Source: a virus
Taxonomy: Duplodnaviria; Heunggongvirae; Uroviricota; Caudoviricetes
DNA: 10,296 bases
Virus record (IMG/VR): IMGVR_UViG_2548876863_000020
Span: 1 to 10,296 of that record
Reading direction: 5' to 3' (one strand)
Shown here: positions 3,608 to 10,022 of the stretch, piece by piece
Position numbering within the stretch: position 1 is the stretch's first letter
Layout: every line of letters begins with the position of its first letter
Made by a program: the position numbers and the translations under genes
The notes under the pieces: model-generated
Told to the model about the DNA's origin: nothing
The model's input: the letters and a program-made list of their open reading frames with translations, nothing else
Databases searched by the model: none

Positions 3608-3889
3608 TCATGATTTACTCTCCATGAACTGGTCAACAGCCATGCTAAGTGATACACCTAACGTCTCGATATGCTGCTGAATATCCTGTAGCGTCTGCGC
3701 CTGAGATAACAGGATTTCACGGTTGCATAACTCTTTAACCAGATGCTCAAACTTGCTGTAATAACCGATACGACTGAGCGTTTCTTTCCCTGCATTCTCG
3801 CCTTCTTTGATAATTCCTCTTTCGCTAAGAATCAGGTCGTGTTTGGTTCCGGTAATAACGTATTTTCCGAGGTCGATGTTTAGCTTCAT
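3608..3889 (-). CDS. Hypothetical protein (93 aa)
   Basis: ORF-track frame, ATG 3889..3887, same strand and tight spacing with neighbours; weak RBS. No family recognised. Confidence 0.55.
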
Positions 3890-3905
3890 TGTTAATTATT
3901 CCATG

Positions 3906-4220
3906 TTAATTTATTCGTATGCCTGCTCTTTCTTCATCGAGTTTTTTTAGCTTGTATCGCATAGCCCTTACTGAATAAATTGAGCGGCAGGTTGCAATTG
4001 CTATTTCTTCTGCGGAGAACTTACCGAAAAGTGATACTTCGGCTCTTGTCCAGCGTCTTCCACGAAGTCGGCTAACAATGTCAGCTCCAATCCTTGTTGC
4101 TTTCGCCATTACTGCTTTTTCAGTCCTTTCCAGTTTTTCAGCGATAACTTCAACTGGCATTGTTGCCGCTACTTCGCACAAGAAATCGACTTCCCATTTC
4201 TCCCATGGAGTCTTTTTCAT
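3906..4220 (-). CDS. Hypothetical protein (104 aa) with an internal tandem repeat, possible DNA-binding
   Basis: Two roughly 40-aa halves share a W..EV..F...S/P.EEIA...R pattern (PWEKWEVDFLCEV...VEVIAEKLERTEKAV versus RRWTRAEVSLFGKFSAEEIAIATCRSIYSV). Confidence 0.55.
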   Translation of the reverse strand: MKKTPWEKWEVDFLCEVAATMPVEVIAEKLERTEKAVMAKATRIGADIVSRLRGRRWTRAEVSLFGKFSAEEIAIATCRSIYSVRAMRYKLKKLDEERAGIRIN

Positions 4221-4231
4221 AGTCGATACCG

Positions 4232-4720
4232 TTATTTGATAAGAAGTGAAGGTTTCCCAACTTTGAGTTGAGCGCCGGGGATATTTATTCCTGCTTTTAG
4301 TTGGTGTTTGATTGCCAGTTTGTCGGCTTTAATTGTCGTTTCAAACTCAACGTATTCAGGAGGAAGGGCGCTTGAGTCGATGATTTCTACAGTTTCTGAC
4401 GGTTTGCGGATTGTTACTTGGTGAATACCTGCTCGAATCTTTTTCTTGCCAACCATTTCAAGCGATGACGCTATATACGCCATAATGCTGTCAATCTTAT
4501 TTTGAATTACTGCGGCTCGTTCATTCAGTGACTTTGCCTCGTCCTTGAGGCGTTCAGCATAACCAGATTCATTTTTAATAATGGCGAGAAGTTGCTCTAT
4601 TTTATCGGTAAATTCTCCTTCCATTCCTTCTATTGTGTCAGCAATCATCTCTGGCTCTAAATCTGAATCCATCAATTTTGCGTATTCATTGGCTATTTCA
4701 TATAGTTTGCTCACTGGCAA
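4232..4720 (-). CDS. Coiled-coil recombination-associated protein, possibly Sipho_Gp157-like (162 aa)
   Basis: ATG 4720..4718 with GGAGG 6 nt upstream; overlaps the recT 3' end by 23 nt. Size, predicted coiled coil and position next to recT fit Gp157-family proteins; assignment is from memory only. Confidence 0.4.
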   Translation of the reverse strand: MPVSKLYEIANEYAKLMDSDLEPEMIADTIEGMEGEFTDKIEQLLAIIKNESGYAERLKDEAKSLNERAAVIQNKIDSIMAYIASSLEMVGKKKIRAGIHQVTIRKPSETVEIIDSSALPPEYVEFETTIKADKLAIKHQLKAGINIPGAQLKVGKPSLLIK

Positions 4721-7021: not shown

Positions 7022-7054
7022 AAATAAGAAAATAAAGGCCACCATCAGGCAGCC
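7022..7054 (-). terminator. Putative intrinsic terminator (minus strand) after ral-like gene
   Basis: Minus-strand RNA GGCUGCC-UGAU-GGUGGCC (7 bp including two G-U pairs) followed by UUUAUUUUCUUAUUU; the ral-like stop TGA is in the loop. Confidence 0.45.
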
Positions 7055-7245
7055 TTGTTGTTCTGTTTACCAAGTTCTCTGGCAATCATTGCCGTAGTTC
7101 GTATTGCCCATTTATCGACATATTTCCCATCCTCCATTACAGGAAGCATTTCTTCAGGCTTAACCATGCATTCCGATTGCAGCTTGCATCCATTGCATCG
7201 CTTGAATTGTCCACACCATTGATTTTTATCAATAGTCGTAGTCAT
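7045..7245 (-). CDS. ral: Ral-like restriction-alleviation protein (66 aa), cysteine-rich
   Basis: ATG 7245..7243. Sequence MTTTIDKNQWCGQFKRCNGCKLQSEC... matches my recollection of lambda Ral closely, and it lies downstream of N in the pL operon as ral does in lambda. Not verified by search. Confidence 0.5.
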   Translation of the reverse strand: MTTTIDKNQWCGQFKRCNGCKLQSECMVKPEEMLPVMEDGKYVDKWAIRTTAMIARELGKQNNKAA

Positions 7246-7323
7246 ACGGATAGTCCTGGTATTGTTCCATCACATCCTGCGGATGCTCTTCGAACTCTTC
7301 AAATTCTTCTTCCATATCTCACC

Positions 7324-7623
7324 TCAAATAAGTGGTTTGCTGCCTAATTTCATTTTCTGGCAACCAACACAAGTCACACCCATTTCACTGCGTGGCTTGC
7401 GGTAGTAAATACGGTTCTGTTTACGCTCGACTTCTTCTTTCTTCTTGCAGCAAAGGCTTCCTAGCGATGCTGCTTTGTCTGCTCTGACGCAACCAGAGAG
7501 CTTTAGCGCAATTTTTCGCGCCAGTCGCTGCTCTTGCATCGCCTGTTCACGTTGAGCCTGTCTGCGTGCTCTGCGGCGATTTCTGGCGTTATCGTCAGCC
7601 AGATATGTAATGACTACTGTCAT
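7324..7623 (-). CDS. N: Antitermination protein N (99 aa)
   Basis: ATG 7623..7621 with GGAGG 5 nt upstream (track ORF extends further with a non-ATG start). Arginine-rich motif NARNRRRARRQAQREQ near the N-terminus; C-terminus ERKQNRIYYRKPRSEMGVTCVGCQKMKLGSKPLI parallels lambda N (ERKNQRTWYSKPGERGITCSGRQKIKGKSIPLI, recalled). Confidence 0.85.
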   Translation of the reverse strand: MTVVITYLADDNARNRRRARRQAQREQAMQEQRLARKIALKLSGCVRADKAASLGSLCCKKKEEVERKQNRIYYRKPRSEMGVTCVGCQKMKLGSKPLI

Positions 7624-7678
7624 GTTGACCTCCGATGAAACAACTTTGGAATTGATAGTGATTGCAAAGTGGTTTCTG

Positions 7679-7707
7679 GCCCCTCGAACTGAGGGGCAGA
7701 AAGAGCA
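7679..7707 (-). promoter_or_regulatory. GC-rich hairpin with boxA-like flank in the N leader (function uncertain)
   Basis: Minus-strand RNA UGCUCUUUCU then GCCCCUC-AGUUC-GAGGGGC (7-bp perfect stem), about 55 nt upstream of the N start; no U tract after it, so not a classical terminator. Confidence 0.35.
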
Positions 7708-7936
7708 TCTCGCCACCTAATAGGTCGATGCTCGGATCGAGAGATTTAATTAACCTCGGTTTTGAAGTTATGCATTCACATAAATCCTCCTACCTCTTGT
7801 GCAGCTTTCTTGAATATGGTGGCGGCTGCATAACGCCTATGGAATTGACTTTGGCGGTGACGCGCCGGGTGCTTATCTTCCGGTTGCCGTCGTGCAGCTG
7901 CACTTCACGTCACCCCAAAGCCAACTACTCTTTGGT

Positions 7937-7978
7937 TCCCGCATTTCGGCGGGACAATCCCATCAATGTTAAAGAGCA
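7937..7978 (-). promoter_or_regulatory. nutL (boxA + boxB)
   Basis: Minus-strand RNA UGCUCUUUAAC (boxA-like; consensus CGCUCUUUA) followed after 14 nt by hairpin UCCCGC-CGAAAU-GCGGGA. The same boxA plus identical boxB occurs in the same transcript orientation downstream of cro. Confidence 0.7.
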
Positions 7979-8023
7979 TGCCAATCTGTTCCGTTTGGCT
8001 ACCAGCGTCCTGCTGATGGCTAA

Positions 8024-8052
8024 AGAATACTGTAGGTATTTTATTGTGTAAA
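8024..8052 (-). promoter_or_regulatory. pL candidate (-35 TTTACA, 17-nt spacer, -10 TATTCT on minus strand)
   Basis: Read on the minus strand: TTTACA (plus 8047-8052), spacer of 17, TATTCT (plus 8024-8029). Same -10 hexamer as the pR candidate; overlaps OL1, about 40 nt upstream of nutL. Confidence 0.45.
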
Positions 8053-8110
8053 TACCCAAGGTATTTATTTTTGGTGAAATAATGATAAGCAAATGAATAC
8101 AAAGGATATT
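8026..8110. promoter_or_regulatory. OL operator cluster (three 15-bp palindromic sites)
   Basis: AATAC-TGTAG-GTATT (8026-8040), AATAC-CCAAG-GTATT (8051-8065), AATAC-AAAGG-ATATT (8096-8110). Same AATAC-N5-GTATT motif as in the cI-cro intergenic region. Confidence 0.6.
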
Positions 8111-8197
8111 TATTTTTTTCGGTGTCTGCTTGTTCAGTGCTTTTTATGCGGGATATGTGAAGTGGATCCCGATAGCTATTGCTGCCGGGATTATGAG

Positions 8198-8566
8198 TTA
8201 GTCAGCGAAGGTTAAGACGAGAATTACCTTAATGATGTCTGCTACAACAGACACGGCCATAGATAAACCAAAGACGATCCAAGCCATAGAGATGTCTTCA
8301 CTACCATCGTATAGAGTTCCGTAATCACTGGTGTAAGGCGTAAATGTCGCGCCTTGATACAACAGGTATAAGCTTGAACCATAGAGGATAAATGCAGATA
8401 TCCCTTGTATTGCTATGATCACTAGAATCATGAAACGAGCTGATCTATGCGCCCAAGCCTGGCTTATTTTTTCTGATAGAGATTTCGCAATAAAAGCATG
8501 CGCTAAGCCGTAAATTGTCGAGATTGCCAACATCCCAAAAAAGCTTGCTATAGCGGTTCCAACCAT
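8198..8566 (-). CDS. Small integral membrane protein (about 122 aa, three predicted TM helices) co-transcribed downstream of cI
   Basis: ORF-track frame 8198..8587 (TTG overlapping the cI stop); ATG 8566..8564 with AAGGGG upstream is the more likely start. Three hydrophobic stretches of roughly 25 residues each. No terminator between it and cI. Confidence 0.65.
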   Translation of the reverse strand: MVGTAIASFFGMLAISTIYGLAHAFIAKSLSEKISQAWAHRSARFMILVIIAIQGISAFILYGSSLYLLYQGATFTPYTSDYGTLYDGSEDISMAWIVFGLSMAVSVVADIIKVILVLTFAD

Positions 8567-8583
8567 AAGCGCCCCTTGCGTGA

Positions 8584-9300
8584 TCAAACCAGCCTTAGTT
8601 TTGTCTCAATTGCAACGCCTATAATCTTGCAGTTTCCATTGATTGGCACGAGAGGCCATGCAGGGTTAAGTCCCTTGAGGTATTTATTTCCGCCGTCGAT
8701 TATCAGCTTCTTGAATGTTGCTTCGTTAGAGTCAGAAAGTTTTGCTATGACCAAGCTGCCGTTGATCGCCTCCCTTCCGGTATCGAAAAGAACGAATGTT
8801 CCCTCTGGAATGCTTAACCCAACCGGTGCCGTCATTGAATCACCTTCCACTTTAAGCCAGAACGCATTACCTTGAATATGCGCGTCAGACTCAAGCCAAA
8901 CATCTATGTCTTTAATGGTGTATGGTTCGCATGCTTCACACCACGAGCCAGCCTGGATACTGCTTAACACCGGATACCTCTTTCCTGCTCTGTATTCCCC
9001 TGCATACCTTACGTTGGCATCGCTCTTAAGGCTTTCTGCCTGTTCTGCAACCTTGGCAGCAATTGACTGGCTAAAATCAGCAATTGAGACTTGCAACAGT
9101 CGTGCAAAACCAGATGCAACCTCAACGTTTAGCGCGTTTCTGCCATTAAGATAATGCCCTACCGCTCCTTGGGTGATACCCAGTTCATCAGCGATTGAGT
9201 ATTGGGTTATTCCCAATTCTTTCTTTTTTGACTCATACAAAGCCTTAAGCCGCTTAGCGTCTTCGAGCTGTTCTGTCGTCAGTGATTTTTTATTTTCCAT
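8584..9300 (-). CDS. cI: CI-type prophage repressor (238 aa), HTH plus S24 autopeptidase domain
   Basis: Strong resemblance to lambda CI as recalled (LTTEQLEDAKRLKALYESKKKELG...). Ala-Gly cleavage site in IQAGSW, catalytic Ser in EGDSMTAP, Lys in TFKKLI. Divergent from cro with operators between them. Confidence 0.95.
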   Translation of the reverse strand: MENKKSLTTEQLEDAKRLKALYESKKKELGITQYSIADELGITQGAVGHYLNGRNALNVEVASGFARLLQVSIADFSQSIAAKVAEQAESLKSDANVRYAGEYRAGKRYPVLSSIQAGSWCEACEPYTIKDIDVWLESDAHIQGNAFWLKVEGDSMTAPVGLSIPEGTFVLFDTGREAINGSLVIAKLSDSNEATFKKLIIDGGNKYLKGLNPAWPLVPINGNCKIIGVAIETKLRLV

Positions 9301-9306
9301 AGCTTA

Positions 9307-9335
9307 ATTCTAATAGCTAAGGTACTTAAACTAAA
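9307..9335 (-). promoter_or_regulatory. pRM candidate, leaderless or near-leaderless cI transcript
   Basis: On the minus strand, TAGAAT (plus 9307-9312) ends 6 nt before the cI ATG and there is no Shine-Dalgarno, as for lambda pRM; the -35 is weak (TTTAGT). Confidence 0.35.
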
Positions 9336-9375
9336 AATACCCTAAGTATTGATTGCTTTGAATACCTGTAGTATT
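9312..9375. promoter_or_regulatory. OR operator cluster (OR3, OR2, OR1)
   Basis: AATAG-CTAAG-GTACT (9312-9326), AATAC-CCTAA-GTATT (9336-9350), AATAC-CTGTA-GTATT (9361-9375); centre-to-centre spacing 24-25 bp. Confidence 0.65.
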
Positions 9376-9377
9376 CT
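9349..9377 (+). promoter_or_regulatory. pR candidate (-35 TTGATT, 17-nt spacer, -10 TATTCT)
   Basis: -35 at 9349-9354 overlaps OR2; -10 at 9372-9377 overlaps OR1; about 30 nt upstream of the cro start. Confidence 0.5.
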
Positions 9378-9406
9378 TTGTTCATGGTTAATAACGGAGA
9401 GTGCAT

Positions 9407-9601
9407 ATGATTCGAATGACACTTGCCGATTACGCCAAAATCCATGGACAGGCTAAAGCAGCCAGTGACTTTGGTGTAATCCAGTGCGCTATCAGCAAGG
9501 CCATTCTGGCAGGCCGTAACATTATGGTTACGGTAAAGCCTGATGGCAGTGTGATTGGAGAGGAAGTTCGTCCTTTCCCAAGCAACAAGAAAAACAAATA
9601 G
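9407..9601 (+). CDS. cro: Cro repressor (64 aa)
   Basis: ATG 9407 with GGAGA 6 nt upstream (track ORF begins at GTG 9401). Resembles lambda Cro as recalled (ITLKDYA..FGQTK.A.DLGV.QSAINKAI.AGR...DGSV..EEV.PFPSNKK). Confidence 0.9.
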
Positions 9602-9607
9602 TAACAC

Positions 9608-9652
9608 CGCTCTTTAACAGTCATGGTCCTCATTCCCGCCGAAATGCGGGAA
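9608..9652 (+). promoter_or_regulatory. nutR (boxA + boxB)
   Basis: CGCTCTTTA at 9608-9616 (boxA consensus), then hairpin TTCCCGC-CGAAAT-GCGGGAA at 9633-9652, identical to the nutL boxB, immediately after the cro stop. Confidence 0.75.
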
Positions 9653-9658
9653 TACAAC

Positions 9659-9690
9659 GCGCACAAGTTGATGCGCATAACTTCTTATTA
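9659..9690 (+). terminator. tR1 candidate
   Basis: Hairpin GCGCA-caagttga-TGCGC followed by a moderately U-rich AUAACUUCUUAUU, between nutR and cII. Weak as an intrinsic terminator; could be Rho-dependent as in lambda. Confidence 0.3.
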
Positions 9691-9709
9691 GTTAAGGAAA
9701 TACTTACAT

Positions 9710-9988
9710 ATGCAACTTACAAGTACTCGCAAGAAAGCGAATGCAATTACAAGCAACATCCTGAATCGAATTGCTGTACGTGGTCAGCGAAAGGTTGCCG
9801 ACGCGTTAGGGATTAATGAATCGCAAATTTCGCGATGGAAAGACAGCTTCATCCCAAAAATGGGAATGCTTCTGGCTGTTCTTGAATGGGGTGTTGAAGA
9901 CGAGGAGTTGGCGGAACTGGCTAAGAAAGTAGCCAGAATGCTGACAAAAGAAAAAGCCCCGAAGAACGGCGAATTCTTCGAGGCCTGA
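9710..9988 (+). CDS. cII: CII transcriptional activator (92 aa)
   Basis: ATG 9710 with AAGGAAA upstream. Resembles lambda CII as recalled (KSQISRWK....[14 protein letters not shown]...A.LA..VA..LT). Confidence 0.9.
9944..9980 (-). terminator. oop-like antisense terminator inside the cII 3' end
   Basis: Minus-strand RNA CGAAGAA-UUCGCCG-UUCUUCG (7-bp stem) followed by GGGCUUUUUCUUUUG; position matches the lambda oop RNA terminator. Confidence 0.35.
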
Positions 9989-10022
9989 TGTAGAAAGACT
10001 GGATCAATCCACAGGAGTAATT

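Follow-up and report, generated by a model that had tools for sequence, protein, structure and literature searches.

Paired boxA-boxB units in an HK620-type immunity region and their predicted place as a fourth class of N-boxB pairing

Antitermination by N of bacteriophage lambda, which acts with the host factors NusA, NusB, NusE and NusG at nut sites, is the system on which the mechanism considered here is modelled. Lambda boxB carries a pentaloop (GAAGA or GAAAA) that adopts a GNRA-like fold with one extruded base. Phage HK620 has an annotated record (AF335538), reportedly from Clark et al. in 2001, which lists nutL, nutR, pL, pR, OL1-3, OR1-3 and tR1. The same nut sites are present in HK140, HK630, mEpX2, CUS-3, IME10, N7, ECP1 and some Stx phages, with boxA elements annotated in HK140, HK630 and mEpX2. 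For phage phi21 there is an NMR structure of the N-boxB complex (PDB 1NYB), reportedly that of Cilley and Williamson in 2003. In this structure four bases of the boxB hexaloop CUAACC adopt a GNRA-like fold, next to a non-canonical C-C pair (PMC12550061).

The stretch of viral DNA analysed here (10,296 bases; hereafter the window) is, judging from its similarity to phage records, an immunity region of the HK620/HK140/mEpX2 type. In a megablast search, positions 7300-10000 of the window were 97-99% identical to HK140, HZ41, vB_EcoP-611R6, HK620, HK630 and mEpX2. HK620 has the same cI, cro and operators and is identical to the window from boxA through boxB at both of its annotated features nutL and nutR, the base before nutL boxA being T in the window and G in HK620. 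This identity supports the original prediction that the two units are nutL and nutR. As such they are already known: they duplicate the 2001 annotation of HK620 and are common in E. coli prophages (a 63-nt nutR segment occurs in 501 of 5,426 complete E. coli genomes, ~9%), so that, as textbook nut sites already in a GenBank record, they add little to the annotation of the window. The two units consist of the following elements.

7967-7978, minus strand: nutL boxA, UGCUCUUUAACA, of the long P22/phi21 type as against lambda's CGCUCUUA
7955-7966, minus strand: nutL boxA-boxB spacer, UUGAUGGGAUUG, resembling the nutL spacers of phi21 and P22
7937-7954, minus strand: nutL boxB, with UCCCGC at 7954-7949, the CGAAAU loop at 7948-7943 and GCGGGA at 7942-7937
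9608-9619, plus strand: nutR boxA, CGCUCUUUAACA
9620-9633, plus strand: nutR spacer, GUCAUGGUCCUCAU, whose final two bases are able to lengthen the boxB stem
9634-9651, plus strand: nutR boxB, with stem strands at 9634-9639 and 9646-9651 and the CGAAAU loop at 9640-9645

The composite pattern GCTCTTTAAC-N(5-30)-TCCCGCCGAAATGCGGGA has two exact matches in the window: the minus-strand copy spans 7937-7977 and the plus-strand copy 9609-9651. No match appeared in 200 shuffles that preserved the dinucleotides, and none is expected by chance. Exact GCTCTTTAAC occurs in the window at nutL and nutR only, and the 18-nt boxB hairpin finds the same two matches only, even with three mismatches allowed. 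TCCCGC-CGAAAT-GCGGGA follows GCTCTTTAAC after 13 nt at nutL and 15 nt at nutR, and both copies are transcript-oriented. The same boxA-boxB unit thus lies downstream of both early promoters, as had been claimed, and it does so in exactly two copies. The coordinates originally given for nutL hold, while those for nutR (9608-9652) had to be corrected to 9609-9651, or 9608-9653 with flanking bases.

Folding of the isolated hairpins, which had been put forward as a check, gave stable structures at both sites: -10.5 kcal/mol for nutL boxB (z -3.1) and -12.5 kcal/mol for nutR boxB (z -3.9), with 0 of 200 shuffles as stable in either case. The stem is 6 bp long at nutL and 8 bp at nutR, where two additional A-U pairs extend it to 9632-9653, and the loop is CGAAAU at both. 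Rfam, searched with the entire window at E values up to 1, returned no match and hence no nut or boxB family. Stable, G+C-rich hairpins of this kind might act without N, as intrinsic terminators, RNase III sites or transcript stabilisers, and the N leader holds another large hairpin that is a possible processing site. We consider such N-independent action extremely unlikely, because a boxA stands at a fixed distance before each hairpin and a 6-bp stem is too short for RNase III. A terminator role was rejected, since neither hairpin is followed by a U-run (flanks GGGAACCAAAG and GGGAAUACAAC) and the terminator scan flagged neither.

Both units lie in early transcription units, for which we found the following elements.

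8024-8052, minus strand: pL, with a -35 element TTTACA (8052-8047), a 17-nt spacer and a -10 element TATTCT (8029-8024), from a promoter scan
8026-8040, 8051-8065 and 8096-8110: OL operators (AATAC-N5-GTATT, the last with one mismatch), overlapping pL; HK620 annotates OL1-OL3
9336-9350 and 9361-9375, plus strand: OR operators, from a search for the AATAC-N5-GTATT repeat
9349-9354 and 9372-9377, plus strand: -35 element TTGATT and -10 element TATTCT of pR, separated by a 17-nt spacer, read from the sequence and matching pR of HK620
8584-9300, minus strand: cI
9407-9601, plus strand: cro (Pfam Cro, E = 3.6e-26), cro also in HK620
9659-9676, plus strand: hairpin GCGCA...UGCGC after nutR, where HK620 annotates tR1
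9710-9988, plus strand: cII (Pfam Phage_CII, E = 1.8e-42)
7045-7245, minus strand: ral, from Pfam
7035-7056, minus strand: candidate tL terminator, an intrinsic-terminator-like hairpin with a T-run at the end of ral, from a terminator scan

The pL of the window corresponds to the one annotated in HK620. Its transcript start, ATCAGCAGGACGC, is the same as that of lambda pL, and because of this homology we place the start at ~8017, which puts the beginning of nutL boxA ~41 nt downstream, in agreement with the ~40 nt predicted from the pL candidate. On the right, nutR does follow cro immediately, with boxA 7 nt past the cro stop codon (9599-9601). The AATAC-N5-GTATT operator repeats, of which the window has five against 0.32 expected, overlap both early promoters; the pR hexamers score below the threshold of the promoter scan. 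The right-hand tR1 candidate is a weak hairpin, and tR1 may be Rho-dependent, a mode invisible in sequence. At the same position after nutR the phi21 locus (~1089-1115 of L205, minus strand) has a longer hairpin of other sequence, which suggests that a structural element between nutR and cII is conserved in the window and phi21.

Two further features of this region were seen in passing. An ORF for a hydrophobic membrane protein of 129 aa (8198-8587, minus strand) lies between cI and OL, where lambda has rexAB; HK620 carries a homologue, hkaS, a gene without an assigned function. The other is a strong hairpin resembling a terminator, with a T-run (9954-9986, minus strand), at the 3' end of cII, where lambda and P22 have their oop RNA terminator.

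Downstream of nutL lie the N gene and its leader.

7324-7623, minus strand: N antiterminator gene, 99 aa, by homology to N of phi21, lambda and P22
7640-7845, minus strand: 206 nt inserted into the N leader after its large hairpin and before the ribosome-binding site of N, a segment that neither HK620 nor phi21 has
7846-7923, minus strand: a large conserved hairpin of the N leader, starting GGCUUUGGGGUGACG (-37.8 kcal/mol, z -3.9)

Residues 1-33 of N, the putative boxB-specifying segment, are encoded at 7525-7623, and the arginine-rich motif (ARM) spans approximately residues 11-33, NARNRRRARRQAQREQAMQEQRL. It can be aligned with its counterparts in N of lambda, P22 and phi21, and this alignment bears out the claim that it differs from that of lambda. 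As lambdoid N/nut systems have it, window N is a small basic protein and the first product of the pL operon; N by itself is intrinsically disordered. The Pfam model N_peptide scored 20.2 bits on window N, below its gathering score of 27.9 bits, so that the protein was assigned to the N family by aligning it directly with the N proteins of phi21, lambda and P22. Its C-terminus is matched by lambda N of PDB 6GOV (E = 0.0016; lambda N residues 75-110), and its identity with phi21 N is 68% overall. HK620 N is identical to window N over residues 1-56, whereas the C-terminus is of phi21 type in the window (99 aa) and of H-19B/P22 type in HK620 (90 aa). Residues 58 and 88 of window N are Cys, as against Arg in most close relatives (LCCKKKEE/LRCKKAEE and VGCQKMK/VGRQKMK); residue 88 falls within the C-terminal segment aligned to the RNA-polymerase-binding end of lambda N.

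The leader hairpin, just past nutL boxB, begins with GGCUUUGGGGUG, a motif that also follows lambda boxB and has related forms downstream of boxB in phi21 and P22. Its phi21 homologue (2304-2385 of L205) has a like structure despite base changes, and the hairpin may correspond to the structure for RNase III processing or for N autoregulation in the lambda N leader. The HK620 leader lacks the 206-nt insertion, and the distance from boxB to the AUG is accordingly 313 nt in the window versus 107 nt in HK620. HK140 (91.8% identity), whose record has a hypothetical ORF of 41 aa running across it, and CUS-3, for half its length, were the only phage records that contained the insertion. Distances from boxA to N of 148, 183, 235, ~355, 372, 399, 442 and 468 nt in IMG/VR indicate that the N leader is an insertion hot spot. 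The insertion might alter N expression.

To see how ARM and boxB are associated, we compared nine genomes: lambda, HK542, P22, Stx2a_EH1965, Cronobacter phage ENT47670, phi21 (imm21 in DE3), mEpX1, HK620 and the window. Four types of ARM correspond to four types of boxB.

lambda ARM: boxB GCCCU-GAAGA/GAAAA-AGGGC, in lambda and HK542
P22 ARM: boxB GCGCU-GACAA-AGCGC (nutL) and CCGC-CGACAAC-GCGG (nutR), in P22, Stx2a_EH1965 and ENT47670
phi21 ARM: boxB with the loop CUAACC, in phi21 and mEpX1
ARM within NARNRRRARRQAQREQ: boxB UCCCGC-CGAAAU-GCGGGA, in the window and HK620

The correspondence is one-to-one in all nine phages, irrespective of the type of N C-terminus. The nut sites of lambda, P22 and phi21, alignment with which had been suggested as a check, share the boxA-boxB layout with the window, each having its own type of boxB. 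In mEpX1 (3872-4548 of its locus) the phi21-type N is directly followed by a gene annotated as 'Nun-like transcription termination factor', and the mEp235 record has the same pair of products; in mEpX1 the antiterminator and the Nun-like exclusion factor are thus encoded by neighbouring genes.

The association extends well beyond these genomes. At least 120 IMG/VR loci carry the exact boxB. Where both copies were captured, nutL and nutR are ~1155, 1231, ~1696, 1740, 2009, 2291, 2862, 2968 or 2990 bp apart; these lengths of the immunity region, at least nine, indicate many different immunity modules. The ORF after nutL in the exact-boxB loci always encodes this HK620-type ARM, joined to at least four different C-termini, the exceptions being a few mis-called ORFs and truncated loci. 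In the reverse direction, 80 IMG/VR loci were retrieved by the N protein; a recognisable boxA lies upstream in 72, and all 72 have an HK620-type boxB. Altogether, exact boxB and HK620-type ARM are paired in more than 170 IMG/VR loci, with no mixed pair among them, and the pairing is seen also in diverged relatives. One IMG/VR locus (L095) has an intact nutL and, ~1.1 kb away, a nutR broken inside boxB (TTCCCGCCG|TGAACCGCCCC); the break probably marks a deletion or a joint left by recombination, in what would be a defective prophage.

Comparison with phi21 shows the same coupling within one backbone. From the pL transcript start through boxA, phi21 is identical to the window; both boxBs are wholly different; past boxB the leader is again ~80% identical. 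Phi21 N has 99 aa like window N and is ~92% identical over residues 34-99, whereas the segment with the ARM, residues 1-33, has been exchanged for another (NARNRRRARRQAQREQ in the window, TAKSRYKARRAELIAERR in phi21). Only boxB-L, boxB-R and the ARM have thus been exchanged in a shared phi21 backbone, which fits the prediction of a cognate specificity pair. In a related case, an IMG/VR locus (L005) has the cro end and boxA of phi21 type (imm21) followed at nutR by a spacer and boxB of window type, and carries window-type boxB at both nut sites. The idea of a distinct N-boxB specificity pair is thereby strengthened at the level of sequence, and the HK620-type ARM and boxB can be regarded as a predicted fourth class of cognate pairing beside those of lambda, P22 and phi21.

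The sites might instead be genuine nut sites that form no separate specificity class, with N of lambda or P22 type also using this boxB and the ARM differences reflecting neutral drift. The GAAA core of the loop is common to lambda nutR, the ARM core xA(R/K/Q)xRR(R/H)xRR is common to all four types, and Cocozaki et al. in 2008 reportedly found overlapping boxB requirements of lambda and P22 N, with some GNRA-like hexaloops moderately active. We nevertheless think this unlikely, given the strict coupling in the nine phages, the absence of mixed pairs from the >170 loci and the joint replacement of both boxBs and the ARM in the phi21-related backbone; moreover, the window loop is not closed by U-A as it is in lambda and P22 nutL, and the window ARM has nothing equivalent to lambda Trp18. 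Partial cross-recognition of this boxB by N of lambda or P22 type is possible.

Diverged relatives, which we reached through IMG/VR loci with only one exact boxB, allowed the conservation of the hairpin itself to be examined. Two permissive IMG/VR patterns (boxA, variable gap, CGAAAT loop) gave mostly chance matches in unrelated metagenomes. We retained only those matches whose spacer was nut-like, whose stem was paired and whose surroundings included N or cII, and dismissed seven hairpin classes as chance occurrences. The diverged nut hairpins differ in their stems but are invariant in the CGAAAU loop and the C-G pair that closes it, and NRRRx(R/K)R is retained as the core of the diverged ARMs (for example MTIVMTILASDNARNRRRAKRAAERE). 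The diverged stems are as follows.

GCUCCCAC/GUCGGAGC
UCUCCGC/GCGGGGA
UUCCCGC/GCGGGGA
UGGCCUAC/GUAGGCUG, from loci L270 and L274, in a putative nut context

We aligned 21 distinct nut hairpins, in which pairing extends to 87.5% of cells, compared with 35-58% in slid registers. Both sides change in five of the eight base pairs, and the observed covariation score was reached in 0 of 500 shuffles; the alignment holds one row for the putative L270/L274 hairpin, and without it four of the five double-change pairs stay. L270 (~335-380) and L274 themselves have a boxA, a similar spacer and the CGAAAU loop on a wholly different stem, and within 1 kb downstream both have AT-rich sequence and no recognisable N gene. 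A variant nutR was also found in Tatumella and Cedecea genomes (genome contig scan; 3 species only).

These data bear on whether the conserved blocks act as DNA, in the manner of boundary sequences or recombination linkers that join mosaic modules, and would be kept for favouring the exchange of modules rather than for any action of the RNA hairpin. The CUS-3 record labels its nutL region 'bsq5; boundary sequence', and homology between phages of different immunity type begins exactly at boxA. A DNA linker, however, needs neither compensatory stem changes under an invariant asymmetric loop nor transcript orientation at both sites and co-variation with the ARM, and we give this explanation next to no weight. 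A linker role may be a by-product of the conservation and so no true alternative.

The nut sites of the window exist, are conserved and co-vary with the ARM of N. We put at about 0.9 the probability that the units are nutL and nutR of a lambdoid prophage with HK620-type immunity, serving antitermination through N-ARM/boxB pairing of a fourth class; a linker, an N-independent hairpin or a non-distinct specificity each fits worse. RNA polymerase starting from pL or pR would transcribe boxA and then boxB. The boxA RNA (GCUCUUUAACA, which we take to be an rrn-type boxA) would be bound by host NusB/NusE, and the boxB RNA would fold into a stem of 6-8 bp capped by the CGAAAU loop. The ARM at the N-terminus of the phage's own N, encoded just after nutL, would then bind boxB, and the lambda/phi21-like C-terminal part of N would engage NusA and RNA polymerase. 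The elongation complex would thereby become resistant to terminators: on the left, N-modified polymerase would have to read through the candidate tL after ral, and on the right it would pass the tR1 candidate that precedes cII, which would be the first gene to need read-through past nutR and tR1 for its expression. We infer N binding, Nus dependence and read-through from the relationship to the known systems. The motif after both early promoters had been taken as strong support for N-dependent antitermination, and homology, the HK620 annotation and the position of the N gene after nutL all point the same way.

The six-nucleotide loop had been singled out as unlike that of lambda. CGAAAU does differ from GAAGA/GAAAA, although a boxB hexaloop as such is not new, as the CUAACC loop of phi21 illustrates. 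By analogy with the phi21 loop, C-GAAA-U probably forms a genuine GAAA tetraloop of the GNRA type, set on a non-canonical C.U pair. The pairing could then represent a fourth mode of ARM-RNA recognition, in which an arginine-rich helix without the stacking residue Trp18 of lambda reads a C.U-closed GAAA tetraloop, fully orthogonal to the modes of lambda, P22 and phi21; we hold this tentatively, at slightly less than even odds. A full-text literature search with the boxB sequence string returned irrelevant papers only, and a search of the available literature for experimental, binding or structural studies of the HK620-type N-boxB pair found none, so that this fourth class appears so far to be without biochemical characterisation. 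If the recognition mode is indeed orthogonal, the pair would offer synthetic biology a ready-made fourth peptide-RNA tether. It would also be a natural intermediate for studying the switching of ARM-RNA specificity, given its phi21 backbone, the lambda-like core of its loop and a hexaloop frame like that of phi21. The pair could further show how boxB and ARM exchange jointly at two separated nut sites in lambdoid mosaic evolution. What the locus can still offer is comparative: a pair that would make up a fourth specificity class found in nature, its hexaloop centred on GAAA.

Lambda has the same architecture as the window (pL-nutL-N and pR-cro-nutR-cII), shares the loop core G-A-A-A and the ARM core RRRxRR, and has a homologous N C-terminus. 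It differs in its boxA, which is CGCUCUUA instead of the long form GCUCUUUAACA, and in its shorter boxA-boxB spacer. A lambda-type boxB has a GNRNA pentaloop, a U-A closing pair and a 5-bp stem; in the window the loop is of six nucleotides, with C and U where lambda has the U-A pair, and the ARM has Ala or Met at the position of lambda Trp18.

P22 has the same boxA as the window (GCUCUUUA), a similar nutL spacer and a similar start of N (MTVITY, compared with MTVVITY in the window). At P22 nutR, non-pairing pyrimidines (C...C) flank the GACAA GNRA-like loop, as C and U flank the loop of the window. The boxB of P22 gp24 (N), however, has the pentaloop GACAA where the window has CGAAAU, and the second half of the ARM is QAQREQAMQ in P22 and RKLAIERDT in the window.

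The boxB of phi21 resembles that of the window in having a six-nucleotide loop whose terminal pyrimidines form no Watson-Crick pair. The stem sequences are unrelated, and the phi21 type is characterised by the loop CUAACC and the ARM GTAKSRYKARRAELIAERR, whereas the window has the core GAAA in place of UAAC and a different ARM. With an ARM of the form ...DNARNRRRA(R/K)R... and a C-G-closed CGAAAU loop at both nut sites, the window fits the HK620-type pairing and matches HK620 exactly.
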